Positions 33,805-55,530 of a DNA stretch of 64,000 nucleotides are shown here, piece by piece. Under the pieces are notes generated by a model. It did no database searches and had not been told where the DNA came from. It saw only the letters and a list, made by a program, of their open reading frames with translations. The DNA is taken from assembly GCA_965116315.1 (NCBI GenBank), contig OZ220672.1, positions 1,636,777 through 1,700,776 of the forward strand, given 5' to 3'. How positions within the stretch are numbered: position 1 is the stretch's first letter; every line of letters starts with the position of its first letter. This stretch comes from Dehalococcoidia bacterium. Lineage in GTDB: Bacteria > Chloroflexota > Dehalococcoidia > Lucifugimonadales > CAJWER01. Both the position numbers and the translations under genes were made by a program.

Positions 33805-33889
33805 GGGGAAGTGTCGGAACTGGCAGACGAGCATGATTTAGGATCATGTGCCGCAAGGCGTCCGGGTTCGAGTCCCGGCTTCCCCACCA
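33805..33889 (+). tRNA. tRNA-Leu (anticodon UAG), CCA encoded
   Basis: Hand-folded. 7-bp acceptor stem GGGGAAG/CTTCCCC, anticodon stem CATGA/TCATG with loop TTTAGGA, long variable arm GCCGCAAGGCGT, T arm CCGGG-TTCGAGT-CCCGG, discriminator A + CCA. Confidence 0.9.
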
Positions 33890-35469
33890 TGACGTACCGA
33901 TTTGCGAACTCCGCCATTGAGGACGATTTCAGCGGAGTCCGCTCCCCCTAACGGACTGTCATCAGGCGTAGGCATCGAGTAGATGATGGCGGCCTTGCCG
34001 GGCTTGATCTGTATCTCCTTTACGAACGAGTGGACGAAGGCTTTGGTCTCGGTCAGCTCGCTGTCCTTGAGAAACTCGCTCATCTCCTCTGCGAAGGTGG
34101 CGATGGTGTCGGCGCTGTCCAGGTACTGCCGCCGCTCGGCCAGCACCGCCCGTGCCTCGTCTGAGGCGCTCTCCAGACTCTCCTTGCGCCTCTGCAACTC
34201 CACGATATGGTCCGAGGCGGCGGCGATGTCTACGCTGTCGCTCTTCGATATGAAGTGCCAGACGCGGCCCAGTTGCTTCTTCACCTCCTCAAGCTCCGCC
34301 TCGATGCTCTCCAGCTTCTGACGGTGCTCCAAGGCCGCTCCGTCCATCTCCTCGTCCAGGTGCTTTACCAGTTCTCTGATGTTGGACTCGGTGAGAACGT
34401 TGGCGCGAAGCTCATCGACGATGGTGTTCTCGATCTTCTTGGCATTGAGCCTGGGGGTCTTGCAGGTCCCGCTGCCCCTCTTCATCAGGGACTGGCAGAC
34501 GTAGTAGGTGTACTTGCCGCTCTTGGCCTCGGAGGCGGACATGGCCCTGCCGCAGGTCTCGCACTTGAGGATGCCGCTGAGCAGGTAGGGGCTGGACGCC
34601 CGGCGCGGGTTCGCCTGCTTCGGGGCGCGGGAGCCGAGTAGCTTCTTGACCCGCATGTATTCCCGCTTGCTGATGATGGCGGGGTGCGCGTTCTCCACCC
34701 GCACGGGCGGCTGGCGGTCCTTGGCGCTGATTCCCCACACCACGGCCCCCGTGTACGCTTCGTTGTCCAGCATGGCGTGGACGGTGGTCTTCTGCCACTT
34801 CTTGCCGTTGACCGTTGGGATGCCCTCGGCGTTGAGGGTCTTGGTGATGTCGAGGATGCTCCTGCCCTGTAGGGCCATGGCGAAGATGCGCCGGACCATT
34901 GCGTCGGCGGGCGGGTCTAGCTCCAGCCTGGGGCGCTTCTTCGCCCCGTCCTGTACGTGGACCCGCTTGTAGCCGTAGGGTGCGTAGGCCGACATCCAGA
35001 AGCCGCGTGACGCTGCCTCGCGCAACCCCCTGGAGACCTCCTGCGCCAGATTCTCCGAGTAAAATTCGTCCACGCTCTCGATGATGGCCTCCAGGAGCCT
35101 GCCGGTGGGGTTGTCCTCGGCCTGCTCGGTGATGGAGACCACGCGGATGCCCTTGCGCCTGAGCTTCGACTTGAAGGCGACGGCGTGCTCGCGTTTCCGC
35201 GTGAACCTTGAGAATTTCCAGACAAGAATCTCCTTGAAAGGGGCCTCGGGCTTTTCGGCTTCGTCCAGCATCTTCTGGAACTGGGGCCGAGCGGCAATAC
35301 GTCCGCTCTCGGCCTCGTCCACGTATTCGCGGACGATCATGTAGCCGTTCTTCTCGGCGTAGTCCCTGAGCGCCCGCAGCTGGGCGGCCACGGACAGGTC
35401 CACGTCCTGGCGGTCGCTGGAGACCCTGGCGTAGAGGGCTGCCGGCGTCAGATCGAATCGGTCGTTCAT
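33844..35469 (-). CDS. large serine recombinase (integrase)
   Basis: 541 aa from the in-frame ATG at 35469 (MNDRFDLTPAALYARVSSDRQ holds the catalytic Ser motif). Recombinase domain, zinc ribbon CETCG..YYVCQ..GTC, and coiled coil. The last ~15 codons are read from the complement of tRNA-Leu. Confidence 0.9.
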   Translation of the reverse strand: MNDRFDLTPAALYARVSSDRQDVDLSVAAQLRALRDYAEKNGYMIVREYVDEAESGRIAARPQFQKMLDEAEKPEAPFKEILVWKFSRFTRKREHAVAFKSKLRRKGIRVVSITEQAEDNPTGRLLEAIIESVDEFYSENLAQEVSRGLREAASRGFWMSAYAPYGYKRVHVQDGAKKRPRLELDPPADAMVRRIFAMALQGRSILDITKTLNAEGIPTVNGKKWQKTTVHAMLDNEAYTGAVVWGISAKDRQPPVRVENAHPAIISKREYMRVKKLLGSRAPKQANPRRASSPYLLSGILKCETCGRAMSASEAKSGKYTYYVCQSLMKRGSGTCKTPRLNAKKIENTIVDELRANVLTESNIRELVKHLDEEMDGAALEHRQKLESIEAELEEVKKQLGRVWHFISKSDSVDIAAASDHIVELQRRKESLESASDEARAVLAERRQYLDSADTIATFAEEMSEFLKDSELTETKAFVHSFVKEIQIKPGKAAIIYSMPTPDDSPLGGADSAEIVLNGGVRKSVRHGGEAGTRTRTPCGT

Positions 35470-35690
35470 CAGTCTCTCCTCCCTGTCTCTTCCTGTTCGT
35501 TCTGGCGGGAGCGCAGCCATTCCAGCCGCTCCCGTCTGCGCCACTCCCGCTCCTCCATGAACAGGCGGATGGCCTGCCTGAGCAACTCGCTCACGGAGAG
35601 GTCGTCCTTCTTCATCACACTCCGCACCTGCGCCTCCATCTCCGGGGGCAGGGAGAAGGTGATGGTCTTGGAACGCCTGGGGGTGGTCAT
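35469..35690 (-). CDS. ribbon-helix-helix (CopG/Arc-like) protein
   Basis: 73 aa. KTITFSLPPEMEAQVRSVMKKDDLSVSELLRQAIRLFM has the RHH pattern. Its stop overlaps the integrase ATG (ATGA). Confidence 0.7.
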   Translation of the reverse strand: MTTPRRSKTITFSLPPEMEAQVRSVMKKDDLSVSELLRQAIRLFMEEREWRRRERLEWLRSRQNEQEETGRRD

Positions 35691-35775
35691 GCTCTCTCTT
35701 TTTGCCTCTTGTTGTAGTGCTATGTCTTACAATACACTATCGAGGAACCGCATTGCAACTGTCTTGCCAGTGCCA

Positions 35776-36819
35776 TCACACGCCGTATCGCTCCCTCCAG
35801 TAACCTGCCCATTCTGCCGCTTCATCGGGGAGGGAACGGGTCACGGCGTCGAGCAGGGAAGATGGGGCCGCCATGTCGAACTGTGCGGCCGGTTCCTTCA
35901 AAGAAGCCCGCATCACAGCTTCCACCGTATCCAGTCCTGGGAATCGCCGGGCCAGCAAAGGAGAAGTGGTGGTCCTACCGTCGGAGATCGTTCGATAGGC
36001 CCAATTCTCCTGCGGCACTATCACCACCACTTTGGCCTCGTCGATTCCCAACTCGCCATCCTGGACCATGCGGTCTGCCAGAAGTCTCTGGCGCATGATC
36101 TGGTAGAACGGCTCATAGAGGAAATCGTCCAGGTCCGGCGCCACATCCAGATTGAAAGAGGAGAATGAAGCCCGGTAACGCTCGGCGTATCTCCGTCGGC
36201 GCGTGTCGCCTCGCGTCCCTTCGCCCATGAAATGAGGCCGAGTGCTCAGGTATTGCTCGACGTACTTCCACTCCAGAAGATAGGCCCGCCTTCTTCCCTT
36301 CGTGGTTACGGCGACGAGGAAGGCGTCGATGCTGGTGTTCTGAGCTCCCCTGGTCGTGCCTCCCTCCAGGGAACGGCCCAAGCCTATCCACTCGAACTCC
36401 ACGTCCGACTCATTTCCATTGTGAGAGATGTTCACCACACCTGCGACATCACCATCAAGGGTGCGTAGGACCGAAAGGAGCGCCCCTGGGATTCCGGCTA
36501 GGGGCAGCAGGAAGTTGACGCAGGCAACTTGGGAACTGGCCAGATTGCGGGTGGGGCCGTCTGACTTGGTGTCGTCGCCGCTCCTGGAGCTCTTCCACCA
36601 CTTGATCCCGCGCCGGGCGAAGAATTCGATGGCTCCGCCCTCTCCCCGGATGCCGGGATAGAGGTTGTCGAGCTCGCAGCCTATGGCCAGCAGATGGGGG
36701 TTGCGCACGCCCTTGTCGTCGGCAGGATGTCGCCCTTGGCCGCTGACTGTCGGAGATGCGTCCCTGAACAGCTGTTGTCGCCGTTTGGCTGACCGTTCAA
36801 AGCCGGTTCTTGATGGCAT
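35776..36819 (-). CDS. PD-(D/E)XK restriction-endonuclease-like protein
   Basis: Candidate nuclease motif IDAFLVAV...AYLLEWKY (D...ExK). LASSQVACVNFLLPL resembles the SSQ-containing motif of the PGN_0703-type putative restriction enzymes as I remember them. ATG at 36819 is preceded by GAGGAGAG; an alternative GTG is at 36864. Confidence 0.5.
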   Translation of the reverse strand: MPSRTGFERSAKRRQQLFRDASPTVSGQGRHPADDKGVRNPHLLAIGCELDNLYPGIRGEGGAIEFFARRGIKWWKSSRSGDDTKSDGPTRNLASSQVACVNFLLPLAGIPGALLSVLRTLDGDVAGVVNISHNGNESDVEFEWIGLGRSLEGGTTRGAQNTSIDAFLVAVTTKGRRRAYLLEWKYVEQYLSTRPHFMGEGTRGDTRRRRYAERYRASFSSFNLDVAPDLDDFLYEPFYQIMRQRLLADRMVQDGELGIDEAKVVVIVPQENWAYRTISDGRTTTSPLLARRFPGLDTVEAVMRASLKEPAAQFDMAAPSSLLDAVTRSLPDEAAEWAGYWRERYGV

Positions 36820-36880
36820 CCTCTTACTCTCCTCTGCCGTCGTGTCCACCTCAACTGGCTGCACAATCGGCTTGCAGGTC

Positions 36881-37813
36881 CTACCAGGGGCCGACCGCTG
36901 CCGCCGCCGCCACGGGCTTGCGCCTGCGCCCGGGCATGTCCGAGGCGATCATCTGAGGTCCGAGGACGGCGGCGTGGCTCTCGGGCACGGCGACGACCAC
37001 CACCCTCGCCAGCTTCCCGTTCCTGATGACGGGCCGGGCGAGGGCAGCATAGCCGCCGCCCAGGGCGAAGCGCGCTTCGCCGTAGCGGACAGCCTGTTCC
37101 GCCAGGGAGCCTGGGGGTATGGGCCTGCCCCAGCGGGGGATACCGCCCCGCTCTCCGCAGATGGGGAAGCCGGTCGGGTTGCCGAAGCCCCGCGTCCGCC
37201 GGACGACCTTGGCCCGCAGGTCGGGCAGCCTGCTTCCGTTCTTAGAGCCTATCCCGTCCTCCTGGGTGTACAGGACCACCATGAGGGGCGGGTCGCGCAG
37301 CACCTCGGCCAGCCGGATTGACACGGCGGCGTAGGAGCAGCGGAACGCCCGCTGCAACCTCAGCACGTCCAGGCCCCACTCCACGGCCAGTGGCTCGAAG
37401 GCCCTCGGCTGCATGAGCACTGCCGCAGCGAACCGCTCGGCCTGCCGGCACACCTTCCGGTCGGGCGGAGAGCCGGAGTCCATGTCGCAGAGGGTCTCGT
37501 AGATGATCTCGTAGGTCTCGTGTATCACCGAGTAGTCCTGCGTTCCCTCCCACAGGTCCTCCCGGTAGTGGATGTCGTAGCCGCCGCCCGGCGCGCTGTA
37601 GTGGATGCCCTTCACGTCCATGTGCCCGTTGCCCGACACCTCGCCGAACCCGGCCCGCTTCAGCAGGGCCTTCAACTGTTCCATCGAGGGACGGGCGGCC
37701 AGGTCGAAGTAGCGCACGAAGCGGGCGGCTAGGGTCTCAGGGTCTAGGGCCTCGCGGGGGCGTTCTTCCAGAAGGATGCGGCAGAAGTCCTCTCTCGTCC
37801 TGTTCATTCTCAC
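36881..37813 (-). CDS. ImmA/IrrE-family (COG2856) metallopeptidase-like protein with a C-terminal extension
   Basis: IHETYEIIYE sits at the position of HEXXH, followed by CRQAERFAAAVLMQPRAF (typical ImmA E..AN.FA..LLMP region). 310 aa. Overlaps the XRE gene stop. Confidence 0.65.
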   Translation of the reverse strand: MRMNRTREDFCRILLEERPREALDPETLAARFVRYFDLAARPSMEQLKALLKRAGFGEVSGNGHMDVKGIHYSAPGGGYDIHYREDLWEGTQDYSVIHETYEIIYETLCDMDSGSPPDRKVCRQAERFAAAVLMQPRAFEPLAVEWGLDVLRLQRAFRCSYAAVSIRLAEVLRDPPLMVVLYTQEDGIGSKNGSRLPDLRAKVVRRTRGFGNPTGFPICGERGGIPRWGRPIPPGSLAEQAVRYGEARFALGGGYAALARPVIRNGKLARVVVVAVPESHAAVLGPQMIASDMPGRRRKPVAAAAAVGPW

Positions 37814-38241
37814 TCCAGCAGCCTCTTATTGGCGAAACGCTCGTACATCTCGACGATGAACCGCTTGGTCTTCAGGGTGATGGGGCCGTCGGGCCGGGTG
37901 CCCACCCGGAACACAGGGTCGGCCAGGACGTACTGGTAGGCACGCTCCACCTCCATCGCCTCGTCGCTGAAGGGGTCGATGTGGGCCTCCCGCCCGGCCC
38001 TCTTCATCAGCTCCTCGGCGTCCACGTTGTAGAGGTGGGCCAGCTTGCGAACGACGTTTGAGCCGGGCATTCGGTCTCCCCGCTCTATCTGGGAGAGGTA
38101 GGAGCTGGAGACGCCGATGCGCTTGGTCACGTCCCGCAGGCTGAGGTCTCCCCGAAGCCGCCGGAGGAGCGGGCCTATGGCGTCGTCTCCCTCGATCTCG
38201 CGGCGTTCGTCCAGGTCCCGGTCGTCTTCAAGCTCGTCCAT
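37810..38241 (-). CDS. XRE-family HTH transcriptional regulator (ImmR-like)
   Basis: LRRLRGDLSLRDVTKRIGVSSSYLSQIERGDRMP is a canonical XRE HTH. First gene of the leftward operon. Confidence 0.85.
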   Translation of the reverse strand: MDELEDDRDLDERREIEGDDAIGPLLRRLRGDLSLRDVTKRIGVSSSYLSQIERGDRMPGSNVVRKLAHLYNVDAEELMKRAGREAHIDPFSDEAMEVERAYQYVLADPVFRVGTRPDGPITLKTKRFIVEMYERFANKRLLE

Positions 38242-38323: not shown

Positions 38324-38531
38324 AATTATTACAACAGAGCGAGCAATTGTCAACGAGTTCAGTTTCCAAGCGTGAATAACGCCTCTCGGTCATTGCCTCG
38401 ACACACTCTATATTGCTACACTTACGCACACAGAACGCATCTTCTAAATCTGGAAGCAGTATACATCACCGGCGCACGCGAAGACCACTCCCTCGTGGCG
38501 GCGCCGGAACCCCGCGAGAGAGACGTATCGC

Positions 38532-38717
38532 GTGAACACCAAGCGAAGGCTTACGGCGAAGCAGGAGCGGCAGCGGACGGAGGGCCTGCGAATACTGGCC
38601 CGCATCATCGCTCGCCACTACCTGGCCAACCCTCACCTGTACCCCAACGGCTCCACCCCGGCCGACGGTCAGCAGGCCGATGACGGGAAGACGGCCCGAA
38701 GGGAGGACAGGGAGTGA
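38532..38717 (+). CDS. hypothetical small basic protein
   Basis: 61 aa, GTG start. Its stop overlaps the next gene's start (GTGA). No family recognised. Confidence 0.35.
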   Translation: MNTKRRLTAKQERQRTEGLRILARIIARHYLANPHLYPNGSTPADGQQADDGKTARREDRE

Positions 38718-38953
38718 AGCGGAGGCAGCCATCGTCGCGGGTGAAGCTCAACCCCCACGCCGTCTGGGACTTGCTCAACCGGCGCAACATGACCCAGAAC
38801 GAGTTGGCACGGCTTGTCGGCACCTCGTCCAGCTACCTCTCCCAACTGATGTCGGGGCATCGCTGCCCCTCGGCGGCCTTCCGCAAGAAGCTCATGGACG
38901 CCTTAGGCGTCACCGACTTTGACGACCTCTTCATCCTGGAGGCCGTCGAGTGA
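38714..38953 (+). CDS. XRE-family HTH protein (Cro-like position)
   Basis: 79 aa. MTQNELARLVGTSSSYLSQLMSG is an HTH. Coupled to both neighbours by GTGA overlaps. Confidence 0.8.
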   Translation: MKRRQPSSRVKLNPHAVWDLLNRRNMTQNELARLVGTSSSYLSQLMSGHRCPSAAFRKKLMDALGVTDFDDLFILEAVE

Positions 38954-42178: not shown

Positions 42179-45100
42179 CTATTGTAGTAGCTTGGAGGAC
42201 AGCTCTGTCAGAGGAACCCCATCGCTTTCCCAGATTGACCTCGCGATGCTTATTCGTGTGTTACCGCCCGTGACGATCAGATGCACACCGTCGGCGTATT
42301 CACCGGTTATCTGGCCTCGCTCCTGCTCGAACTTATCGAGTTCATCACACAATTCCGACACACGTTCGCCGATGTCCCCAACGAACCGCATACTTGCCTT
42401 AACGTCGACTAGCTCCGGTTCATCTTCCGAGTCCACAGGAACCACACAGAGCAGGAAACGATCACCTTGTTTGACCGCATTTCTCGCCTGGCTCGGTGTC
42501 ATTCGCGCGTCATCGGTTCGTGTGGCCTTTACCTCTACAAGCCAACTCTCATCGTCTTTCGATATTTTCAACTCCCCCGCATCGTCCTCCGATAAATCCT
42601 CTGTCGCATCGGCTGCCACCTTGATCACCAAGTCGGCGCCCACTCTAGTTTTCTCAACCAAGTACCCTTCGTTTTCGAGGTTTTCCTTGACGAGACATTC
42701 TACGAGATTCCCGAATTGCTGATTGCGATGTACTCTCTGCGTCTGTTTGATGCGGTCTGCAAGGTAGTCACTGACAGCTTCATCCTTGCCCAATTGCGTC
42801 AAGAACTTAGGGACTACATCCAATCGGTCGAGCACATTCTCTGCCGCATTGATTATTGCCATGAGTTTGTTGTCCACACTGACGCGGGTCTGAGCGTCCA
42901 CAGCCATGGACTCTCTCACTAAGTCAAGACGTGAAACTCCAATTGCTTGGAGCAAACTGTCAACGGCGGGATTGTCGGGAATTGAAAGTGTACCGCTGTC
43001 CCGGAACAAGCGACCAAGCGACTGAGCAGTCGCTGTTGTGTACCTGTCATTTCCAAGGGGGACCCAGCTGTTCTCTACTACAGTCGGTAGCCACTGACTC
43101 TGATAATGGTTGTGCTTGACATCGCACGTACAGAGTGCTTCCTCCGTCTGCAATCCTTGAGCGTCATGGACAACCAACCATTCAGTCAAGAATCTCCAGA
43201 AAAGGCGAGCACGTCGCTGGCTCCCGCGCGCCCGCCTGATGACGCTGTTGTCGTCGCCCCTGAAATGTACTATATCGGTTAGTTTGACTGCCTCATGTGC
43301 TTCATGCCTTGCGCCCTCAGCTAATGCTGGCAAGGGTTCGTCGGGCAAGAACCTGGGATGTCGAACCTCACGGGAGACCACTATTGAAGCTCTAACGATT
43401 TGGAACTCGCTCAACTTCTGCCAAACCTCAGCATGAGGGACCTCGTCATAGAATGCTGTTGATAGAATTCGCGCTGGCGGGAAGAGTTCCAAAAACTCCT
43501 GAAGGTCTTCGTCCCAGAGTGTTGCCGGCGCAAGAGGGACTTCTTCGTCAATCTGTCCGTCCGGGGCCAGCCAAACGACATGCTTGTCGCTGTCTTCCTC
43601 CTCTTGGCAGAACACAGGGAAACCACGTAGACGGTCCCATTCCTCATGCTTGGTGATCCAAGCGAACGCTCGAGTACTGCCCATAGCAAAGGCATCATCG
43701 AGATCACCACTAGCGGCGATTTCTCTAAGCTCCTCAATGACTTCTTTGACTACATCCTGATTTCGTTTGACATCCTTCCCGTCTTCACTATCAAGGGAAG
43801 TAAGTCGTTTGTCACGAAGTTCCTCCCTTAGTTTTAAGCCAACTTCATCAGCTATGTCCTTTAGCTCTTCATCAATGTTCTCATCGCGAAAGAGATTCCC
43901 TAGCTTATCGAGAGATCCCGACTGGTCCAAGATCAAGTAGCGGCTATTGACCTCGTCGGCATGTTCACCACCCCTCAGGAACGCAAGGACATTATCCAGC
44001 CATTCGGTGGCATCTATGCCTTCTACTAGCGCATCCTGGAGGTTCTCGATATTGCCATAAGTCTCATCCTCTGAGCTTCTCGCCACTCGCTCGATGTAGC
44101 GAGCAAATCCGGCTCCATCAAGCACTCCGTCGAATTCGGTAGTGTCGCAGCCACTCAGTGTGGCCCAGCTCTTTACCGCCTTGTTCCAACCAACTACCTC
44201 TCTCCGTCTTGGTAGTCTTGAACGAAACGCTTTCAGCCCACTCAGCAAGTCCCAGAGGGTTTCAACTTTGGTATCCTCGTCGGCGAGAGGAAGGAGCGAC
44301 TCCGAAGGAGCCAGCGCACCCTCACCATACTCGCAGAGGACGGCAGGGGTACCAAGTAGAGGGCCTAGTAGATTCTCAGTAAGATGTTCTCGAAGCTTTT
44401 CGGGGACCAGCCATTCCCTATCGGGGATAGGTGGCACATCCGCTAACGTCGATACGTCATCCCACGCCGACTCACCCGCAAACTGAATGAGCCGGATAAG
44501 AAGTGTGCAGGCTTCTTCCACGGCCGCCTGATTGAGGAGATTGGCCTCGTCGCTCTCGTTCAACCAGAGGTTTACTCCGTCCCGGTCTTCATCTGACGGG
44601 GTAAACTGAAAGCTGTTTATAATGGCGGGAAAACTGAAGTTCTCGGTTCCAATCAATGGAAGCCCCAGAAACAACCTGGGAATATCTGCAACTTGCAGGC
44701 AAGATGTAGAGTCTCCTAGCGTAGCTGCCTGCACAGCAATGGAGGTGGCTTCTTTCTTGATCAGGAGATACTTGCTGCTGGTCCAATTGTCGGGGCTTGT
44801 TCGCCGGACCGTGACTTCCTGCACATCATTATCCTGTAACTGCTTCCGTTCAGTGACGTTGAAACTCACGAATTCACCTAGAGACTCGACAGAAATTTCA
44901 CTGAACTCTTCATTGAATGCAAGGATGAGAGGAGACAGCATTTCCAGACTGGAGATGCCTTGGCTCACGACCCTAGCCGCTGCCTCACCTTCAACGGTAT
45001 ACCGGAACCTAGTCGTATAACCATGTGGTAAAGTCACCGCCTGGACAGACGTCAGAGAAGCATTGAATCTCCTTGCGGACTCTCGCATATCGTCATCTAT

Positions 45101-45553
45101 CGACTGGATTGAAGTGGGTGCCCTTCGCACAGGAAAATTGAAACCCCGGCCGTCAACGAGCTTCCCTGAAACATAGATTTCGTTGGAGAGCAGATGCGTC
45201 GTGAGTAACCCACTTCCGTATTGCCCTAGCTTCGACTTGTCCTCGGCCTTGGTTGATCCATGGTAAATGACGCGAGCTATTTCTTTCATCTCGAATGGTC
45301 GGCCATTGTGCTCTAGCAGGACTTGCCCTTGATCGTGTCTGACTGAGCAAGTGAGGCTCATTGCGCCGTTGGGAGAAGCGTCACGTGCATTCTGCAACAG
45401 CTCCCATATCCAACGCGTTTGTACACGGTCTCTCCGTGCCGCGAGATTGGTGAGAAGTTGATAAACACGTTGTGCGTTAGTCGTGGTAAGTGTGTCTCGT
45501 TCGATCTGTTCCCAATCACTCTTGTCCACTATCATTTGTTCTCCCGGGTCCAT
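42179..45553 (-). CDS. GHKL (sacsin/HATPase_c_3-like) ATPase fused to a C-terminal DUF3883 PD-(D/E)XK nuclease-like domain
   Basis: 1124 aa. N-box WIWELLQNARDA and G-box GQYGSGLLT lie near the N-terminus. The C-terminus (GADLVIKV...SWLVEVKATR...FLLCVV) is as in DUF3883. GC is about 43-52% on hand-counted lines, against about 70% in the flanks. Confidence 0.8.
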   Translation of the reverse strand: MDPGEQMIVDKSDWEQIERDTLTTTNAQRVYQLLTNLAARRDRVQTRWIWELLQNARDASPNGAMSLTCSVRHDQGQVLLEHNGRPFEMKEIARVIYHGSTKAEDKSKLGQYGSGLLTTHLLSNEIYVSGKLVDGRGFNFPVRRAPTSIQSIDDDMRESARRFNASLTSVQAVTLPHGYTTRFRYTVEGEAAARVVSQGISSLEMLSPLILAFNEEFSEISVESLGEFVSFNVTERKQLQDNDVQEVTVRRTSPDNWTSSKYLLIKKEATSIAVQAATLGDSTSCLQVADIPRLFLGLPLIGTENFSFPAIINSFQFTPSDEDRDGVNLWLNESDEANLLNQAAVEEACTLLIRLIQFAGESAWDDVSTLADVPPIPDREWLVPEKLREHLTENLLGPLLGTPAVLCEYGEGALAPSESLLPLADEDTKVETLWDLLSGLKAFRSRLPRRREVVGWNKAVKSWATLSGCDTTEFDGVLDGAGFARYIERVARSSEDETYGNIENLQDALVEGIDATEWLDNVLAFLRGGEHADEVNSRYLILDQSGSLDKLGNLFRDENIDEELKDIADEVGLKLREELRDKRLTSLDSEDGKDVKRNQDVVKEVIEELREIAASGDLDDAFAMGSTRAFAWITKHEEWDRLRGFPVFCQEEEDSDKHVVWLAPDGQIDEEVPLAPATLWDEDLQEFLELFPPARILSTAFYDEVPHAEVWQKLSEFQIVRASIVVSREVRHPRFLPDEPLPALAEGARHEAHEAVKLTDIVHFRGDDNSVIRRARGSQRRARLFWRFLTEWLVVHDAQGLQTEEALCTCDVKHNHYQSQWLPTVVENSWVPLGNDRYTTATAQSLGRLFRDSGTLSIPDNPAVDSLLQAIGVSRLDLVRESMAVDAQTRVSVDNKLMAIINAAENVLDRLDVVPKFLTQLGKDEAVSDYLADRIKQTQRVHRNQQFGNLVECLVKENLENEGYLVEKTRVGADLVIKVAADATEDLSEDDAGELKISKDDESWLVEVKATRTDDARMTPSQARNAVKQGDRFLLCVVPVDSEDEPELVDVKASMRFVGDIGERVSELCDELDKFEQERGQITGEYADGVHLIVTGGNTRISIARSIWESDGVPLTELSSKLLQ

Positions 45554-45658
45554 TCGGTGGACCAGAAGGGTTGAGGCTAGGAATCAGTGTAGGTTAATGA
45601 TCGCTCGGAGTCCACATTGTTATTCTTCCTTGAGGCGTACATTAGAACGCGTGCCCCA

Positions 45659-46414
45659 TCACCGTCTGACGACGCCCTGGGGATCTCGCCTCGAAGCCCT
45701 CCGGTTGAGGGCGCGGTCGAGGATGCCGAAGGCGAGGTGGAGGCCCAACTCCGTCACTCTCTTGGACGGCTCCTCCTCCTGCTTGAGGAGGGCATGGGCG
45801 ATGAGGTCGGCCATCTGGAGCAGGTCGTCGTCCTGGGAGCTTCGGAAGGTGGGGCCGCCGATGATTCGCTCTATGGGAATGTTCCTGGTGGCCTCCCCGT
45901 CCTCCCACGCCTCGTACCTGCTGGGCACGGGGTTGCGGCTCCTGAGCCTGCCGTAGAGCCTTCTGACCATGTTCTCCCCGCCCTCGTCGAAGATGAGGTG
46001 GGCGTAGCGGCCCTCCCCGGCGACGGAGGTGTTGATGCGGTTGAGGAGACGGTCGAGGCTGACCCGCTCGTAGCCGTTGAAGTCGGCCTTGCGCAGACAG
46101 ACGTTGATGACCTCAATGCCCCCGCGATGGGCGGCGCTCTCGATGATGCGCAGGCCATCCATGAAAATCTCGGCCCCTTGCTCCGGGGTTAGCCTGCGGC
46201 CCGTGTTGTCGATGCGGGCCAGCTTGCCCCGTCCGGCCAGCAGGTCGCAGGCGTGCAGCTCCCGGCTGGTGGGGACGTTGTAGTCGCCTGCCATGGCGCT
46301 GCGCCAGTCCTGGATGGTGGCGTGCAAGCCGTTCCACCGCTCGGCGTCCACGCCCAGGGCGGAGCGGACGTAGCAGGTGGGGCCTTCTGACTCGTCGATG
46401 TAGTAGATTCTCAT
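45659..46414 (-). CDS. DUF3800 domain protein
   Basis: 251 aa. Begins MRIYYIDESE and has the distal LLQMADLIAHAL motif; both are characteristic of DUF3800 as I remember it. Confidence 0.7.
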   Translation of the reverse strand: MRIYYIDESEGPTCYVRSALGVDAERWNGLHATIQDWRSAMAGDYNVPTSRELHACDLLAGRGKLARIDNTGRRLTPEQGAEIFMDGLRIIESAAHRGGIEVINVCLRKADFNGYERVSLDRLLNRINTSVAGEGRYAHLIFDEGGENMVRRLYGRLRSRNPVPSRYEAWEDGEATRNIPIERIIGGPTFRSSQDDDLLQMADLIAHALLKQEEEPSKRVTELGLHLAFGILDRALNRRASRRDPQGVVRR

Positions 46415-46444: not shown

Positions 46445-48076
46445 TCAGCGGCTGCTGAAGGCGTGGACCGGTTCGGGGAAGCCCGGTCTGCGCCAGGTGC
46501 GGCCCAGCGGCCCCTCCCGCTCGACCAGATCCCTGTGGGAGACCAGCAGCGGGACCTCAACCCCGGCCCGCGCCATCTCCTCCCCGGCGATGCGCAGGAA
46601 GTGGGTCTGGGCGATGTCGTCGTCGAAGACGACCAGCACGTCGGGCCGCGTCCCGTGGTCGTCGGTCGGGCGGCGGGACGAGTAGTAGCGCAGGTAGGGT
46701 GCGAGGCGGGCAGCCATCGTGACTGGCCTGACGGCCCGGCGCTCCCACTCCAGGAAGAAGGCCCAGGTCACATCGCCCTTGCGCAGGACGCCGAAGGCGT
46801 CTGGGTGGATGGAGCGGAGCCGGTCGGCGTGCCGGAAGTAGCGGGAGGCCCTGCGGGGCGGGTCGAGCTGGACGATCTCCCTTGAGCGGGAGCGTGCCTG
46901 CCTCGCCAGGGCCGCCATGAAACCGTGGACGGCGGCGGTGTGCTGGACGTTTCTGAGAAGCTGTCCCGTGCGCTTGCCGGAGACGGTGCGCCAATCGACG
47001 GCATCGCCGGTGGAAGCGGCGCTCCATCGCTTCCTGGAGCCGCCCACGGAGGCGCGGTCCCTCCGGGCCAGCATCGCCAGCCCCCGGTCGGTGACGGCGA
47101 GACGGCGGCGGCCCTCGACGGTCGTGACCGCCGCCAGGCTCAATGCGGTCAGCCGCCCGACGACCTCGGAGAGCCTCGACCGCTTCAGCCCCATCAGCGC
47201 GCCGAGGTGGACGGCGGTCAGCCAGGGCCAGTCGGAGAGCAGGTCGAGGGCGCGCTTCTCGAAGGGCTTGAGCAGGGCGGGCAGCATCCAGTCCTCTCCG
47301 GCCTTCATGTCCAGGTCTGCGGGGAGAGACGCCCGCGCCGGAGGCTCCTCGTCGAGCCAGCGGCCTCGCGGACCGGTGTGGTCGAGGACGGTGCGCAGGT
47401 CCAGGAGCGCTGCCCCGGAGGGGGTACGCCAGATGGGCGCACCGGCCCCCGCAGAGGAGGCGTCCCGCTCCAGGGCGAGGTAGGCGATGAACGGCGCTCC
47501 TGCCAGCAGCCTGCGGGCGTGGCGCAGCCGGGTCTCGTCGGGCATGAGCAGCAGCGCGGCGGCGGGCTGCGCCCCCTCCCTGAGCCGCCAGAGCCGCTTG
47601 GAGAAGCCGGTGCGGTCGGTGGCCGGTCCCTGCCTGACGATTGCGATCACGCGCCCGTCGGGGAGGGCGACGACTGCGTCCATCGGCATGGCGCGGTACC
47701 ACCGCAAGCGAATGGGGTGGGCGAGGGTCGATACGGCGGAGGCGATGCGGTAGACGACGCCAACGGCGTCCAGCCGCTCCAAGAGGAGCCGCCGCCACTG
47801 GTCCGAGACCGGTCGGCTGCGGAGCAGTCCGCCCACACTCTCGCCCTCCTTGCGGGCCAGCAGTCGCAGCCCCGCATCGGTGAGGCAGTAGCGGCGGGTC
47901 GCCGGTGTCAGATGGTAGGCGTGGGGGAAGGAGGCCACCAGCCCCTCGCATTCGAGACTCTCAACGGCCCGATAGACTGTGCCCCGCGACCAGCCGGAGA
48001 CTGCCACCGCCTCCAGCCGGTCGAGGAGGGGCATGTGGGAGAGCAGCCGCAGGGTGTCGGCTTCGACGCGCCTCAC
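46445..48076 (-). CDS. replication-relaxation (Replic_Relax) family protein with a duplicated module
   Basis: 543 aa from the GTG at 48076, which overlaps the T4CP stop (GTGA). The C-terminal half (HTAAVHGF...IHPDAFGVL...AFFLEWERRAVRP..LAPYLRYY) fits Replic_Relax. The N-terminal half repeats the wHTH + similar-module layout in degenerate form. Confidence 0.65.
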   Translation of the reverse strand: MRRVEADTLRLLSHMPLLDRLEAVAVSGWSRGTVYRAVESLECEGLVASFPHAYHLTPATRRYCLTDAGLRLLARKEGESVGGLLRSRPVSDQWRRLLLERLDAVGVVYRIASAVSTLAHPIRLRWYRAMPMDAVVALPDGRVIAIVRQGPATDRTGFSKRLWRLREGAQPAAALLLMPDETRLRHARRLLAGAPFIAYLALERDASSAGAGAPIWRTPSGAALLDLRTVLDHTGPRGRWLDEEPPARASLPADLDMKAGEDWMLPALLKPFEKRALDLLSDWPWLTAVHLGALMGLKRSRLSEVVGRLTALSLAAVTTVEGRRRLAVTDRGLAMLARRDRASVGGSRKRWSAASTGDAVDWRTVSGKRTGQLLRNVQHTAAVHGFMAALARQARSRSREIVQLDPPRRASRYFRHADRLRSIHPDAFGVLRKGDVTWAFFLEWERRAVRPVTMAARLAPYLRYYSSRRPTDDHGTRPDVLVVFDDDIAQTHFLRIAGEEMARAGVEVPLLVSHRDLVEREGPLGRTWRRPGFPEPVHAFSSR

Positions 48077-50700
48077 TCCTCGCCCTCCCCGTCGTCCGAG
48101 TCCTGGGCGGGCCTGCCCGTTGGCGGCTGGAAGTGCTTGCTGCGCGTGTCCTTGCGCTCCAGGTCCTTGGGCGCGTCCTTCTGCTCGTTCTTGGCAGCGT
48201 CCTCGCCCTCCCTGGCCTCCTTGACGGCCTTGCGGAACTCCTCGACTCGCCTGCGGCCTTCGGCCTGCTGCGCGGCGATCTCCTCGTCGGTGGTGAGGTA
48301 GGAGGCCGCCTCTGCGGTGATGCGCTCGGCTATCGCGGGGTCTCCGTGCTCGGGCTTGCCCACCATCATGGAGAAAGCGGGCATCCGCTCCTTCTCCACG
48401 GTGGCGCGGACGTAGCACTGGTGGACGGGGAGGGACACGATGTCCTCCTCGCTCACCCGGTCCTTGCCCAGCTCCCACACCATCTGCCTGGCGTCGTTGC
48501 CCGCCACCTGGAAGACGGCGAGGCAGCCCACGTTGGCAAGCAGGGTGTCGCGCATGGTGCGGGAGAGGTCGTCGAGCTTGGCGAGGCTCTGGGTGGCCAG
48601 CACGAAGCTGGCCCCGAACTTCCCCAGCTCGCTGAGCATCGACTCGTAGTCCACGCCGGGCATGGACTGCATCTCGTCCACCACCACCAGCGCGCCGCGC
48701 CTCTGCTCCGGGGCGAGGCTTCCCTGCTCCCGTATCAACGCGTCCACCAGGTTGAGGAGGGACGCGCCCACCAGGGCGGCCACGTCCTTGCCCGCCTTGC
48801 CCTGGGCGGTTGAGACCAGCAGGATGCCGCCGTCCCGAACGACCCGGCGCATGTCGATGGTGGATCGGGGCTGTCCCAGGATGGCCCTTGCCCGCTTGGA
48901 GGAGGCGTAGTAGGAGAGACGGGTCTGGACGGGGGCCAGGGCGTCGGCCCTGGTCTCGCCCCGCCAGCCCTTGAAGTCCCTCCTCCACCACTGGAGCAGG
49001 AAGGGGTCGCTCACCCTGGTCAGCACCCCGTTCTTGAACTTGTCGTCGGCCAGGAGCGTCAGCGCGTCCAGGATGGTGAACTGCTCGTCGTCGGCGGTGT
49101 CCGGGTGCTCGTTGGCCTCGTGGAGGGTCTTGACGGTCTGCTCCAGGATGGACTGCATCCTCGGCCCCCACTGCTCCCACAGGCCCTTGGCGATGCGCAC
49201 GACGGAATCGGCGGTGCGGTCGCGGTCGGAGAAGATGCGGGTGTCGAGGAGGTTGACGCCGGGCGCTCCCCGGTCGTCGGCCAGGTCGATGAGCCGCACC
49301 TGCCCCACGAGGGACTCCGGCACCTGACGGAGCAGGCCGCCCACCAGGTCGGCGTGGGGGTCGACGACGATGATGGCGTCTCCGTCCCTGCCCTCGGCCT
49401 TCTCCTGCATCTTGTGCCGGACGATGTGGTGCATCAACGTGGACTTGCCCATGCGGGTCCTCGCCACGTAGAGGTGGTGCCGTCTGAGCAGGTCGGCGGG
49501 GAAGCGGATGGGCCGGGGCTTGCCCGCCGTGGTCTGCCCCACCGGCGCTCCTCCGCTGACGCCCCTGGCGGCGGGCATCAGCACCCTCGCTCCGGACCGC
49601 TCCACCAGGGGCGTCTCGTCACGCGCTCCGGGCGGGTGCCAGAGGGCCGCCGCCTCGCGGACGCCCAGGACGCTGCGCCTGCCGAAGAGTCCCGGGCCGG
49701 AGGGGTGGAGCATCGAGGGGTCGGGCGCGACGGGCCGTACCTTGCTCACCTGGAAGCGCGCCCCGGCGGGATGGTCGTAATGGCAGTAGGCGGCGGCCAC
49801 CGGCTCAAGCATCTCCCTGGCGCGCCGCCGTCCATCCCCCGGTTCCTCCGTCGCCGGCAGGACCGCAGTGACCTGAAGCTCACCGTCGAAGGCGATGCGG
49901 GAGACCTTCTCCCTGATGAGCAGGGGGTCGTAGACCCGCTTTCCCGCCTTCTTGATGCGGTGCCACAGCCAACCGCCTGCGGCCAGGGCTGCGGCGACGC
50001 CGATTCCCATGGCCACGGCCTTCCACGTCTCGCCCGCCTGCACCCACAGGTAGCCCTTGAGGGCGGCCAGGGCGGCAACTCCGAGGACGGCCATCGTCAC
50101 GCCGTCCGTCTGGAGGGGCCGGGTCTGGTATGTGTAGGAGGGCTCGTACCGCTCAGGCACGGGTTTCTTGTGGGCCTTCTCCATGTGCGCCTGAGACCAG
50201 TCGGGTCCCAGGGAGCGAAGCATCAGCCGCGCCACGATGCGCTCGTTCTCCCCCAGGTTGGACAGTGCCCCCAGGAGAGCGATGAGCGGGTCCGAGCCGG
50301 GGTCGAGCAGGTCGTCGTCACGGAAGGTGCGCAGGGGGACGTACTCGGGGCCGTCGGCCCGCAGGGTCATGCTCCACGCCTGCTCACCCTCGTCCAGGCG
50401 CAGAGGGTCGTCCTCCATCGGCACATCGTGGATGCGGGCCTGGGGGTAGTGGGCCCCGATCTGTCCTTGCACCACCTGCCTGTCGAGGCAGCGGGCCAGC
50501 AGGGTCACGCCGTTCGTATCCCCCGCAAGCTCCAGGGAGAAGGGTTCGGGAACGGCGATGGACTGGAGCATGTTCTCCACGCCGAGCATGGTGCGCTCCC
50601 CGTCCCTGGGCGGCGTCACCGCCAGCAGCGCGGGTTTCCTATCCTCGTCTTTCGGCAGCCACTTCATCGGGTTCAGCTTCAATTGCTCTACTCCTTTCAT
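48073..50700 (-). CDS. type IV coupling protein (VirD4/TraD/TcpA-like ATPase)
   Basis: 875 aa. Two hydrophobic segments around residues 200-250. Walker A VARTRMGKST, Walker B ALVVVDEMQS, followed by FGASFVLATQS. Confidence 0.8.
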   Translation of the reverse strand: MKGVEQLKLNPMKWLPKDEDRKPALLAVTPPRDGERTMLGVENMLQSIAVPEPFSLELAGDTNGVTLLARCLDRQVVQGQIGAHYPQARIHDVPMEDDPLRLDEGEQAWSMTLRADGPEYVPLRTFRDDDLLDPGSDPLIALLGALSNLGENERIVARLMLRSLGPDWSQAHMEKAHKKPVPERYEPSYTYQTRPLQTDGVTMAVLGVAALAALKGYLWVQAGETWKAVAMGIGVAAALAAGGWLWHRIKKAGKRVYDPLLIREKVSRIAFDGELQVTAVLPATEEPGDGRRRAREMLEPVAAAYCHYDHPAGARFQVSKVRPVAPDPSMLHPSGPGLFGRRSVLGVREAAALWHPPGARDETPLVERSGARVLMPAARGVSGGAPVGQTTAGKPRPIRFPADLLRRHHLYVARTRMGKSTLMHHIVRHKMQEKAEGRDGDAIIVVDPHADLVGGLLRQVPESLVGQVRLIDLADDRGAPGVNLLDTRIFSDRDRTADSVVRIAKGLWEQWGPRMQSILEQTVKTLHEANEHPDTADDEQFTILDALTLLADDKFKNGVLTRVSDPFLLQWWRRDFKGWRGETRADALAPVQTRLSYYASSKRARAILGQPRSTIDMRRVVRDGGILLVSTAQGKAGKDVAALVGASLLNLVDALIREQGSLAPEQRRGALVVVDEMQSMPGVDYESMLSELGKFGASFVLATQSLAKLDDLSRTMRDTLLANVGCLAVFQVAGNDARQMVWELGKDRVSEEDIVSLPVHQCYVRATVEKERMPAFSMMVGKPEHGDPAIAERITAEAASYLTTDEEIAAQQAEGRRRVEEFRKAVKEAREGEDAAKNEQKDAPKDLERKDTRSKHFQPPTGRPAQDSDDGEGEE

Positions 50701-50734
50701 TACAGGTTCGGATGGACGGTTGAGCAGGCCGCGC

Positions 50735-53002
50735 CTAGTGCTTTCCCGGAATCCACTCGATCACCTCCGTCTCCTCCGGCGTGGCTTCGATGCGCACGGG
50801 GAAGCGGTGTCCCTTCGACAACAGGAGGCCGTCGCCGCGCGGACACGACAGCAGCCATCGCTGGAGGTCTTCGGGCAGGTCGAAGGCGTCTCCGACCGTG
50901 CTTATCGCCGCCGCGTCCTGCTGGAGGAGCAGCTTGAAGGCGGCGTTCTGAAGCAGGGCACGCCCGGAGTGCCCCGTGATGGCGCGGGACGAGTCTTCCG
51001 ACAGAAGGTCCTGGACGTCCTGGGTGATGAACTGCAACCCCAGCCGGTGCTTGCGGGCGCGCTTGGCCATAGACACCATGAATGCAGCGCCCTCGGGGTG
51101 CTGCATGATGCTCCAAACCTCGTCCACGACGAGAAGGCGGGGCTTGGGGTCCTGGGCCGCCGCCGCCCACACCGTCTCGGTGCAGACCATCGCGGCGGCG
51201 GGCCTCAGCTCCGGCTCCAGGAGGCGAAGGTCGAAGACGGTGACCAGGGCCTCGTTGCCCAGCAGGTCGTCTCCCTCGTCGGAGAGGAGGTTGCGCAGGC
51301 TGCCTGTGGCGAAGGGCCGCAGCAGCCGCGAGAGGTCCTCCTCCTCCCGTTCGAGGTAGGCGTAGAAGTCGCGGAAGCCGTTGCGCCCCCCGGCCCGGGC
51401 GTAGTAACCCGCAAGGGCGTGGTCGAGGGCGGCCCGCCGCTCGGCGGAAAGGCGCTCGCCGACCATGACCTCGATTAGTCGCCGGAGGCTGCCGATGCGC
51501 TGCAACAGCTCCTCGGAGTCTCCCTTGTCGATGACGAAGGGATTCATGCCCTGTCCGGGGACGCCGGGGGAGAGGACGCGCCCACCTGCGGCGCGGGCCA
51601 TGTCCGCGTACTCGCCCTCCGGGTCGATGACGTAGGCAGTCACACCCCGGCACAGGCCCCTCAGCACGCCCAGCTTTGTAGCGAACGATTTACCGCTCCC
51701 CGACCTGGCGAGGACGGCGGTGTTGGCGTTCAGGTGCGTTCCGTCCCAGGGGTCGTAGACGACGGGGGAGCAGGCCCGCATGTCGATGCCGTAGAGGGTC
51801 CCCCGGCGGGTGTCGAGGTCGGGCGGCGAGAAGGGGAAGAGTTGGGCCAGGCTCGACGTGTCGAGACTGCGCCACTCGGCGACGGCGTTCAGTCCCAGGG
51901 GCAACGTCGATAGCAGCCCCTCGCGCTGCCTGAACCCCAGGTTGTCCAGCTTGCCGAGGGTCGCCCCGAAGTGGCCCTTGGCCCGCTGGGTCATCTCCTT
52001 GAGGGACGCCTCGTCCTTCGCGTGAAGGGTGACGGACAACGACGAATGAAATAGCCGCTCCCTGCCGCGCTGCACCTCGTCGCGTAGACGAGTCACGTCC
52101 TCCAGGGCGATCTGCGCCTCCGGGGACATGGTGCGTCCCCGCTTGAACGACAGGGACTGGGCCGACTCGAATCGCACCTTCTGCCACTCCAGCGTCCTCG
52201 CGGCCTGCTCCGTGGGGATCGGCCCCAGGTGGATCGACAGGTCCATCGGCGCTCCCGCAGCCATGAGGTTCTGTAGGAAGCCGGGGGCCAGGGAGCGGGG
52301 CCACTTGCCCAGGTGAAGGGAGCGCACCAGCCGGTCGCCGATCCGCATCTCGCGTCGGCCCATCTCAACCTCGACCGGCGTGTCGGCGTCAAACTCCCCA
52401 GGGGTAGTTCCGAGGCCGGCAGATACGAGAAACATCCGCAGCCGCCTGCCGCCGAGGGGATGGACGGACAGCCCGGCCCGCGCCAGCAGGCCCCGCAGCT
52501 CGTCGAACCGGGAGTGCTCGCACACGGCGTAGAATCGCCGGTCGAGGATGCCGTCGCGGGACTCCAAGTCGGTCAGGAGCCCGCGCAGGGACTCGGCTGC
52601 CGCCTTCGTCTGCGGGGGCAGGTCGGGCGGCTGGGCCTCGGTGAGCTTGTCCCTCAGCCCGTCCAGGCGCGGGGGGTGCTGCCTGACGAGGAGCTGCACG
52701 GGGAAGTCGCAGGCGTTGAGCGCCCCGGCGAAGGCCCCCAGCTTCGGCTCGTCGATCTCAAGGCCCATCACCTCGCACACTCCCAGCTTCACCCCGTCCA
52801 GCCGGACGGGTCCGTCGCCTTCGAGGTGGGACAGCATGAAGAACAGGGGCAGGTCGGGCGGCGGCTTGGGGGCCGGTGCCTGGGGTTCGGTCAATTGGGA
52901 TGCCGACGCTGTGTCGGCCCCCGGGGTGTCTTGCGGAGCGGTCGCCGCTTCGGGCAACCCCTCCGCTCCGTCTCTCTTGAATCGTGCGATCAGCTTCTTC
53001 AA
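50735..53002 (-). CDS. VirB4/TrbE-family conjugative transfer ATPase
   Basis: 755 aa. Walker A VLARSGSGKSFATK, Walker B RLLVVDEVWSIM, RKHRLGLQFITQ. TTG start with AAGGAGAG 7 nt upstream. Confidence 0.85.
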   Translation of the reverse strand: MKKLIARFKRDGAEGLPEAATAPQDTPGADTASASQLTEPQAPAPKPPPDLPLFFMLSHLEGDGPVRLDGVKLGVCEVMGLEIDEPKLGAFAGALNACDFPVQLLVRQHPPRLDGLRDKLTEAQPPDLPPQTKAAAESLRGLLTDLESRDGILDRRFYAVCEHSRFDELRGLLARAGLSVHPLGGRRLRMFLVSAGLGTTPGEFDADTPVEVEMGRREMRIGDRLVRSLHLGKWPRSLAPGFLQNLMAAGAPMDLSIHLGPIPTEQAARTLEWQKVRFESAQSLSFKRGRTMSPEAQIALEDVTRLRDEVQRGRERLFHSSLSVTLHAKDEASLKEMTQRAKGHFGATLGKLDNLGFRQREGLLSTLPLGLNAVAEWRSLDTSSLAQLFPFSPPDLDTRRGTLYGIDMRACSPVVYDPWDGTHLNANTAVLARSGSGKSFATKLGVLRGLCRGVTAYVIDPEGEYADMARAAGGRVLSPGVPGQGMNPFVIDKGDSEELLQRIGSLRRLIEVMVGERLSAERRAALDHALAGYYARAGGRNGFRDFYAYLEREEEDLSRLLRPFATGSLRNLLSDEGDDLLGNEALVTVFDLRLLEPELRPAAAMVCTETVWAAAAQDPKPRLLVVDEVWSIMQHPEGAAFMVSMAKRARKHRLGLQFITQDVQDLLSEDSSRAITGHSGRALLQNAAFKLLLQQDAAAISTVGDAFDLPEDLQRWLLSCPRGDGLLLSKGHRFPVRIEATPEETEVIEWIPGKH

Positions 53003-53021
53003 CTTGGTACTCTCCTTTGTG

Positions 53022-55045: not shown

Positions 55046-55066
55046 GGTCTTCTCCTTCCCTTCCGT

Positions 55067-55363: not shown

Positions 55364-55530
55364 TCGTTTGTCTCCTCTCGTTTCCTCTGCCGGGCGTTCC
55401 CCGCCCGGACTTCCTCGGTTCATCCGTCTCTATCGGTGTTGTCCGTCTCGCTTCAGTTACTTGCACATCGCTCCACCTCCTTCGCGTTCTCGGTCGGCGT
55501 GGGGCCGCGCCCCCGCCGAATGGGTTGTCG

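Follow-up and report, generated by a model that had tools for sequence, protein, structure and literature searches.

The stretch of contig OZ220672.1 from a Dehalococcoidia bacterium analysed here, 64,000 nucleotides (nt) in full and referred to as the window, carries five consecutive minus-strand genes for an XRE-family repressor, an ImmA/IrrE-like peptidase of family M78, a PD-(D/E)XK nuclease, a ribbon-helix-helix (RHH) protein and a large serine integrase. We propose that these genes represent the control module of an integrative conjugative element (ICE), that the nuclease gene occupies a swappable slot within it, and that the peptidase has a remodelled metal site. The probability of this combined reading is put at about 0.5. 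All five open reading frames (ORFs) were found where the original prediction had placed them and in the order that it had given, and each had a family match:

33844..35469, minus strand: large serine integrase, assigned by Pfam (ORF extendable to a GTG at 35544)
35469..35690, minus strand: small RHH protein (RHH_1, 4e-4), translationally coupled to the integrase
35776..36819, minus strand: PD-(D/E)XK nuclease of 347 amino acids (aa), the cargo gene, REase-ARP/PDDEXK_13 (ORF to 36864)
36881..37807, minus strand: IrrE/CapP-type M78 peptidase, 308 aa, with a peptidase domain and, at its C-terminal end, a GAF-like domain
37810..38241, minus strand: XRE-family helix-turn-helix (HTH) repressor, 143 aa (HTH_31, 1.4e-12; HTH_3)

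The homologue searches returned 877 matches for the nuclease and 328 for the peptidase, and the E-values of the homologues of these two proteins spanned 1e-120 to 1e-217. Because hundreds of close nuclease and peptidase homologues exist, the five ORFs are regarded as real genes.

Based on its gene content, the region is the predicted immunity and integration module of an ICE located next to a tRNA-Leu gene. This assignment follows from the genes of a type IV secretion system, a coupling protein and a relaxase-like protein, together with the serine integrase at the tRNA. The features concerned are as follows:

33805..33889, plus strand: tRNA-Leu(tag), found by ARAGORN, at the chromosomal junction of the element
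38532..38953, plus strand: start of the divergent operon, with a 61-aa ORF and then a 79-aa cro-like HTH protein (HTH_3, 4.7e-11)
46445..56511, minus strand: transfer genes of the element (Pfam: Replic_Relax, TrwB/TraG-like, VirB4/TraC-like, TrbL/VirB6-like)
48073-50700, minus strand: TrwB/TraG-like coupling protein (Pfam)
50735-53002, minus strand: VirB4/TraC-like ATPase (Pfam)
55531-56511, minus strand: TrbL/VirB6-like protein (Pfam)

The integrase ORF overlaps the tRNA-Leu gene with its 3′ end (33844), and the host genes dnaJ and hrcA, recognised by eye from their translations, directly adjoin the tRNA on its left. On the other side of the module, small HTH genes continue after the cro-like gene up to about 39917. 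A divergent pair of the same kind (a 67–75 aa gene and a 78–80 aa HTH gene) was also present in the related loci L001, L003, L089 and L090–L095. In L003, L089, L090 and L095, the module is likewise flanked by these transfer genes, and module and transfer genes recur together in Dehalococcoidia metagenome-assembled genomes (MAGs) at differing chromosomal sites.

To characterize the cargo slot, two samplings of relatives were used. The nuclease-based sampling comprised 78 genome loci, and the peptidase-based sampling, which was unbiased as to the nuclease, included six relatives looked up by protein. In the former, about 20 loci, all from Dehalococcoidia/Chloroflexota, had the XRE–ImmA–nuclease–RHH–integrase order next to a cro-like gene, and a few had nuclease–RHH–integrase alone. 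At 56 of the 78 loci, the nuclease stood without XRE, ImmA, RHH or integrase, and these copies are called solo below. Judging from gene order, the basal module in the close relatives is XRE–ImmA–RHH–integrase, and the slot corresponds to the ImmA–RHH spacer, which is 65–72 nt long when empty. No cargo occupied it in L089, L094 and L095 (here the peptidases used as queries, P0155, P0171 and P0191, are 81%, 79% and 73% identical to that of the window) or in the more distant L082 (peptidase 51% identical, tblastn); in L083, the RHH gene was missing as well.

Other relatives carry something else at this position. The slot of L090/L091 contained a gene for a methylase–HNH fusion (PADLOC MTase_II, 3.8e-61), a DUF4238 gene and a gene for a 301-aa protein, and the peptidase of these loci, 91% identical to that of the window, was the closest among the six looked up. 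The slot of L093 encoded a small HNH protein, and that of L084–86 contained an NYN-domain gene matching the PADLOC defence candidate HEC-09 (1.7e-33). L092 had a REase-ARP nuclease in the slot and had lost the integrase. In one ICE clade (L029, L033), a 550-aa TPR protein is encoded ahead of the nuclease; the TPR region and the nuclease are covered by one ORF of 909 aa in L032.

Alignment of the empty spacers with both junctions of the window placed the nuclease cassette inside the ImmA–RHH spacer, between the two copies of an imperfect 10-bp repeat, both of which correspond to one TTGCAAGCCG-like sequence in the empty sites:

36877-36868, minus strand: left copy, CTGCAAGCCG, the cassette insertion point according to the empty-site alignment
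35758-35749, minus strand: right copy, TTGCAATGCG, which is the -35-like part of the promoter-like element ahead of the RHH and integrase genes

In L001, the nuclease is 92% identical to that of the window and the peptidase only 78%, while L090, with its 91% identical peptidase, has other cargo. Because nuclease and peptidase identities are thus incongruent, the slot contents have been exchanged between elements. From these comparisons, the nuclease is accessory cargo at a hotspot with other conflict-type occupants, and not as core machinery; a core role in the ICE was rejected because close relatives lack the gene. It had been predicted that the nuclease sits in a position typical of exclusion and defence genes, and the comparison bears this out, as relatives have other cargo or none there.

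The remaining parts of the module were examined for their starts and junctions. The XRE gene was paired with the peptidase gene in every related locus, and its product gave weak matches to PADLOC capH (4.7e-5) and to NCBIfam RstR/ClgR. The likely start of the peptidase is the ATG at 37807, 2 nt past the XRE stop and with GGAG ahead of it, since homologues begin with MNRTRED. The 4-nt GTGA overlap of the two genes holds only if the GTG at 37813 is taken as the start. Of the two start/stop overlaps claimed previously, the one between XRE and ImmA is thus the less likely, whereas that between RHH and integrase was retained: the most likely integrase start is the ATG at 35469 within TGATG, which gives a 1-nt overlap with the RHH stop, and GGGAGGAG lies upstream. 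The short gaps described around the nuclease gene were found as 61 nt from the ImmA stop and 85 nt to the RHH start; the remaining junctions are tight. With the ATG at 36819 as its start, the nuclease has 347 aa (350 aa in homologues).

The integrase matched Resolvase (4.8e-34), Recombinase (1.4e-22) and Zn_ribbon_recom (1.5e-14) in Pfam and CcrB- and XisF-like families in NCBIfam, the latter two under the cut-off. In about 20 related loci, an RHH homologue of 65–97 aa is encoded ahead of the integrase, and its position makes the RHH protein a candidate directionality factor or regulator of the integrase. Two promoter-like sites were noted in the module:

38325..38353, minus strand: TTGACA-17-AATAAT, upstream of XRE, 11/12 matches, TG-extended
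35729..35758, minus strand: TTGCAA-N18-TATTGT, ahead of RHH–integrase, found by eye

A consensus scan found one site upstream of XRE against 0.6 expected in shuffles, and the element ahead of RHH–integrase was absent from its output. According to the alignment, the latter element is kept in the ImmA–RHH spacer of L089, L093, L094, L095 and L082, where the slot is empty.

The 347-aa protein had been predicted to be a PD-(D/E)XK nuclease on account of its IDAF...LLEWKY motif. The motif was confirmed in the sequence, and the family searches agree. It matched the Pfam families REase-ARP (PF22558; 5.9e-31, 108.5 bits) and PDDEXK_13 (PF20796; 7.2e-21, 75.2 bits). Residues E143, D165 and E183-x-K185 were invariant in 51 and then in 69 homologues, down to 33% identity, which makes them the candidate catalytic residues. 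S96-Q97, C100, N102-F103, Q240 and R243 were also invariant in the 69 homologues, and the invariant residues hold in ICE-borne, solo and fused contexts. NCBIfam gave no match for the nuclease, and we found neither a characterised member of, nor literature on, REase-ARP/PF22558/PF20796/PDDEXK_13.

No methyltransferase motif was found in the ORFs of at least 150 aa in the window, in line with the original prediction. Nor did a methylase partner of the nuclease occur among the 78 loci, ICE-type loci included, and the 171 flanking genes of 43 of the 56 solo loci contained no methylase or constant partner. Because a methylase is absent from the window and from the flanks, the nuclease is not regarded as part of a type II restriction-modification system and is a predicted stand-alone enzyme.

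In a neighbour-joining tree of the nuclease, the deep branches were all solo, and the ICE copies were interleaved with solo copies in the crown. All ICE copies have one right-hand junction in common. One nominally solo copy (L002/L008) is a decayed element, since the spacer and 66 nt from the start of the RHH gene are still present beside it. The 327-aa protein encoded convergently to that copy was considered as an ImmA relative and rejected (hhalign probability 0.7%). The simplest history suggested by these data is that a chromosomal solo gene was captured by an ICE lineage, followed by exchange and decay.

Some homologues occur in other settings. In L054, a homologue and an AAA_15-type Walker A segment are encoded by one ORF. 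In an Anaerolineaceae MAG (L072, 3472-11381), a distant homologue with 36% identity directly follows a DISARM-like trio (helicase, MZB/DUF1998 protein and PLD-domain protein) and is itself followed by a Gp49/HigB-like gene. Homologues with 48–70% identity were present in MAGs labelled Vicinamibacterales, Pseudomonadales, Alphaproteobacteria and Klebsiella pneumoniae (L019, L036, L041, L054, L067 and others), a spread that implies either inter-phylum transfer or binning errors.

In addition, nuclease homologues with 51–57% identity and intact catalytic residues form the N-terminal 335 aa of ORFs of 1935–2452 aa that run on into complete RpoB, and another homologue lies in frame inside RpoC. These fusions are located as follows:

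L043 9995-17353 (OZ241844.1), Gammaproteobacteria MAG: nuclease::RpoB ORF
L046 9992-15967 (OY282353.1), Gammaproteobacteria MAG: nuclease::RpoB ORF
L050 9995-15802 (OZ242023.1), Gammaproteobacteria MAG: nuclease::RpoB ORF
L047 6680-12772 (OZ241901.1): nuclease in frame inside RpoC, at aa 1111-1443

The context in L046 is the housekeeping operon tuf-secE-nusG-rplKAJL-[nuclease::rpoB]-rpoC. In L047, the nuclease splits the match to Rpb1 domain 5 (aa 976-1914), the trigger-loop-side domain of RpoC.

The peptidase matched Peptidase_M78 (PF06114) over residues 64-168 with 32.5 bits against a cut-off of 22 (8.6e-8) and gave a weak PADLOC capP match (1.3e-5). Its AlphaFold2 (AF2) model had a mean confidence (pLDDT) of 74, and Foldseek aligned it over 220–300 columns with IrrE/PprI (3DTE, 3DTI, 8SLM and 8SLN, the last being a complex with single-stranded DNA (ssDNA)) and with PrpR (6cyy), with E-values of 6.5e-7 to 1.1e-5; isolated GAF domains were lower-ranked matches. 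On this modelled structure, the protein has the three-part IrrE/CapP architecture (M78, linker and GAF-like domain) and not the short ImmA form. Consequently, the C-terminal extension of about 130 aa, which the original prediction had singled out as unusual, corresponds to the standard GAF-like domain of IrrE/PprI/CapP.

PDB sequence searches with the peptidase alone or with a narrow alignment (A1) returned only noise, while a profile of diverse subfamily members (A5) matched CapP 7T5T with an E-value of 4.4e-4. In the CapP paper, the zinc ligands are His96, His100 and Glu129, and the catalytic residue is Glu97; the numbering is offset by two residues from the structure owing to the expression tag. 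H98-E99-T-Y-E102 of the window peptidase aligns onto HELGH of CapP, so the previously noted HETYE does lie at the HEXXH position. Cys122 aligns onto the zinc-ligand Glu in IEAQADLFAS. The protein therefore departs from canonical M78 enzymes at the second His of HEXXH, which is Glu, and at the third-ligand Glu, which is Cys. The downstream Glu that was said to be retained from the E..A..FA signature proved to be a different position: E126 aligns with the Asp/Asn of the canonical ExxA(N/D)xFA motif, and Cys122 takes the ligand position.

The subfamily collected by an exhaustive profile search comprises 356 clusters (50% identity), canonical M78 proteins being beyond the reach of this search, and a regular-expression search of the collected loci for canonical HEXXH M78 proteins found none. 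Of the listed representatives (50% identity) that cover the motif, roughly 95% had HE-x-(Y/F/C/H/R)-E. In homologues with 23–44% identity, H98 and E102 were invariant and E99 nearly so. Position 122 is Cys in most subfamily members and Glu in a distant minority; one group has a short insertion, with Cys two residues ahead of this position. Position 105 varies freely (His in many relatives, Tyr in the window peptidase). Because H-E-x-x-E and the Cys are conserved across the listed subfamily members, the pattern indicates that the site is under selection and not in decay. It looks remodelled, with His98, Glu102 and Cys122 as putative ligands and Glu99 as the putative catalytic residue, instead of the usual His/His/Glu. 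It is also worth noting that Cys11 is conserved across nearly the whole subfamily, and Cys159 in the crown group (alignment A1). PrpR, which has a related fold, is reported to hold an iron-sulfur cluster.

It had been suggested earlier that the peptidase may be inactive. We consider this unlikely in view of the invariant H98/E102 and the nearly invariant E99, and an active peptidase with altered metal chemistry seems more likely than a dead sensor; it may possibly have a different metal preference or redox sensitivity. The proposal that it is a catalytically dead sensor or scaffold, like the PrpR/RamB regulators that reuse the M78–GAF fold for ligand binding, draws on the changes in both the HEXXH motif and the Glu ligand, on M. 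tuberculosis PrpR among the top Foldseek matches, on a weak NCBIfam RamB match and on the modest Pfam score. However, Glu99 is nearly invariant, E102 and C122 (or E122) are conserved metal-binding side chains among the listed members of the 356 clusters, and the protein is a separate chain always paired with XRE, whereas PrpR/RamB carry the HTH in the same chain. Such a role is therefore judged improbable.

Based on the above results and on analogy with known systems, we suggest the following scheme for the element. The XRE repressor, expressed from a strong promoter, would keep the divergent cro-like and transfer operon off. On a signal, the peptidase, which combines a peptidase domain with a GAF-like sensor domain, would cleave the repressor; the trigger would most likely be DNA damage or ssDNA. 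Activation of CapP by ssDNA and the analogies with ImmR/ImmA and DdrO/IrrE are described in bioRxiv 10.1101/2022.04.27.489752 and PMC13228613. Cleavage of the repressor would induce the element, leading to excision and transfer, with integration and excision presumably carried out by the RHH protein and the serine integrase. In the integrated state, transcription of the nuclease gene probably results from read-through from the repressor promoter. The function of the nuclease would be defence or exclusion in genetic conflict, most likely as a stand-alone enzyme that needs no methylase and protects the host and the element against incoming phages or rival elements.

Several observations weigh against this reading. 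The AF2 model of the nuclease (pLDDT 85) gave only weak top PDB matches in Foldseek (SduA, Avs3 nuclease, EcoO109I, EndoMS and MspI; E-values of at least 0.5 for all), and because it has no significant structural neighbour there, the fold assignment depends on the Pfam profiles and the motifs. PADLOC had no match for the nuclease. At the 43 solo loci mentioned above, its neighbours were mostly housekeeping and metabolic genes and not defence islands. The fusions of some homologues to RNA polymerase subunits do not fit a simple restriction-like role. The case for read-through consists of gene orientation and the lack of a detected terminator. Direct repeats of the att type, matching the 3′ end of tRNA-Leu, were sought with no convincing result, and the far end of the element was not located, although the absence of such repeats is as expected for a serine integrase. 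Operator-like repeats were sought between the XRE and cro-like genes, and none were found.

Among the alternatives for the nuclease, the least improbable, though still unlikely, is that it is a selfish mobile ORF resembling a homing endonuclease, which inserted itself into the ICE operon, as at other genomic sites, and persists with no benefit for host or element. This would agree with the DNA similarity of solo loci to the window, which starts and stops at the borders of the nuclease ORF, and with the imperfect repeat bounding the ICE cassette, the interleaving of ICE and solo copies in the tree, the in-frame location at the RpoB N-terminus and inside RpoC in Gammaproteobacteria MAGs, and the lack of partner genes in the flanks scanned. 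On the other hand, the synteny that solo copies show within lineages (L055/56/57/68, L037/42/48 and L043/46/50) points to stable inheritance rather than frequent homing, and the neighbours reveal no common target gene. Moreover, intein or intron features are missing, the one right-hand junction of all ICE copies suggests a single capture, unrelated defence-type cargo occupies the same slot in sister elements, and TPR or AAA_15 partners accompany the nuclease in some clades. The polymerase fusions may also be taken to mean that the nuclease acts together with RNA polymerase and is a transcription-coupled enzyme used by the ICE against invading DNA. Independently of the fusions, the His/Glu/Cys site may make the peptidase a redox- or metal-sensitive induction switch. 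We regard this reading as quite unlikely, and less probable than either the selfish ORF or the dead peptidase.

It is more doubtful still that XRE, peptidase and nuclease together form a damage-induced defence or toxin module in the style of CapH/CapP, in which the pair mainly controls the nuclease. The weak PADLOC capH and capP matches given above, the fact that the peptidase subfamily matches CapP best among PDB sequences, and the retention of XRE–ImmA–nuclease without the integrase in L092 are compatible with it. However, close relatives have the XRE–peptidase pair with an empty slot or with other cargo, the pair is missing from the 56 solo loci and always stands beside cro-like and transfer genes, and the nuclease gene belongs to the operon of the repressor itself, downstream of it, and is not placed behind a divergent repressed promoter. 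The lowest probability is assigned to a role of the nuclease in the life cycle of the element, such as circle processing, entry exclusion at the DNA level or the killing of cells that lose the element. Its position and orientation are kept in about 20 related elements, it has a good ribosome-binding site, and in L001 it shows 92% protein against 86% DNA identity, a sign of high amino-acid conservation. Nevertheless, nuclease-less sister elements have peptidases 73–91% identical and the same transfer genes, and the family is ancestrally chromosomal and solo. We thus prefer the ICE control module with a nuclease in a swappable slot and a peptidase with a remodelled metal site.

The original prediction likened the operon to immR-immA-int of ICEBs1 from Bacillus subtilis. 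The likeness holds for the logic of repressor, anti-repressor and integrase in an ICE. In both cases, an XRE repressor, an M78 anti-repressor and an integrase are co-oriented at the element end, the control genes are divergent from the excision and transfer genes, and induction presumably occurs by repressor cleavage. It goes no further than function. ICEBs1 has a tyrosine Int with a separate Xis, whereas here a large serine recombinase is preceded by an RHH gene; its ImmA is short and without the GAF-like domain, in contrast to the long IrrE/CapP form of the window. The HExxE and Cys metal site and the cargo slot between the peptidase and integrase genes are further differences. Closer in architecture are CBASS-associated CapH/CapP (7T5T) and DdrO/IrrE-PprI of Deinococcus (3DTE, 8SLM/8SLN), which share the M78–linker–GAF arrangement and the pairing with XRE; CapP and IrrE are the best sequence and fold matches of the window peptidase. 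They differ in the metal site (His96, His100, Glu129 and Glu97 in CapP versus His98, Glu102, Cys122 and Glu99 here) and in what is governed, which is a defence operon or a repair regulon there and a conjugative element here.

Defence hotspots in integrated elements include lambda rexAB with cI, the immunity-integrase region of cluster N mycobacteriophages, P2/P4 and hotspot 5 of the SXT ICE. Like the slot described here, they have a fixed position and alternative unrelated conflict genes in or beside an operon expressed when the element is integrated. Unlike them, the present slot is a 65–72 nt spacer in the repressor–peptidase–RHH–integrase string of a Dehalococcoidia ICE. The nuclease shares the E...D...ExK core of REase-ARP/PDDEXK_13 and scores well above both cut-offs. 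Cargo hotspots in integrated elements are already well known, and the control logic of the ICE is that of ICEBs1; we found no previous description of the ImmA–RHH hotspot, of the peptidase subfamily or of the nuclease family.

A further region of the element, 42179..46414, has a G+C content of 0.52–0.54 and contains two cargo genes:

42179-45553, minus strand: low-GC cargo, TmtA (Tiamat) defence protein, 1124 aa (PADLOC TmtA, 1e-156)
45659-46414, minus strand: low-GC cargo, DUF3800 protein (DUF3800, 1.3e-6)

The DUF3800 gene occurs without TmtA in some relatives (L089–L091 and L095). Next to this region, a 560-aa ORF without a Pfam match (40422-42104, plus strand) has within it a direct duplication of about 550 nt, in which 41047-41301 and 41596-41850 are 82% identical and 41403-41521 and 41946-42064 are 71% identical. 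At a comparable position, L001 has a 351-aa gene with no assigned function. It should also be noted that a second peptidase (P0125), 88% identical to that of the window (P0121), is seemingly encoded on the same 4.19-Mb contig (4,189,098 bp), which suggests a second related element in this genome. Two copies per genome were also observed in L005/L006 and L009/L010.

If the proposed organization is correct, the swappable slot of serine-integrase ICEs of the Dehalococcoidia type would be useful for finding conflict genes in an uncultured lineage. The M78 anti-repressor subfamily, with its conserved substitutions at two of the three canonical metal ligands (Glu for His, Cys for Glu), poses the question of metal choice and activation signal for ImmA/IrrE/CapP proteins. 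Finally, the analysis draws attention to a strongly conserved family of solo nucleases without a methylase, members of which are elsewhere fused to RNA polymerase subunits.

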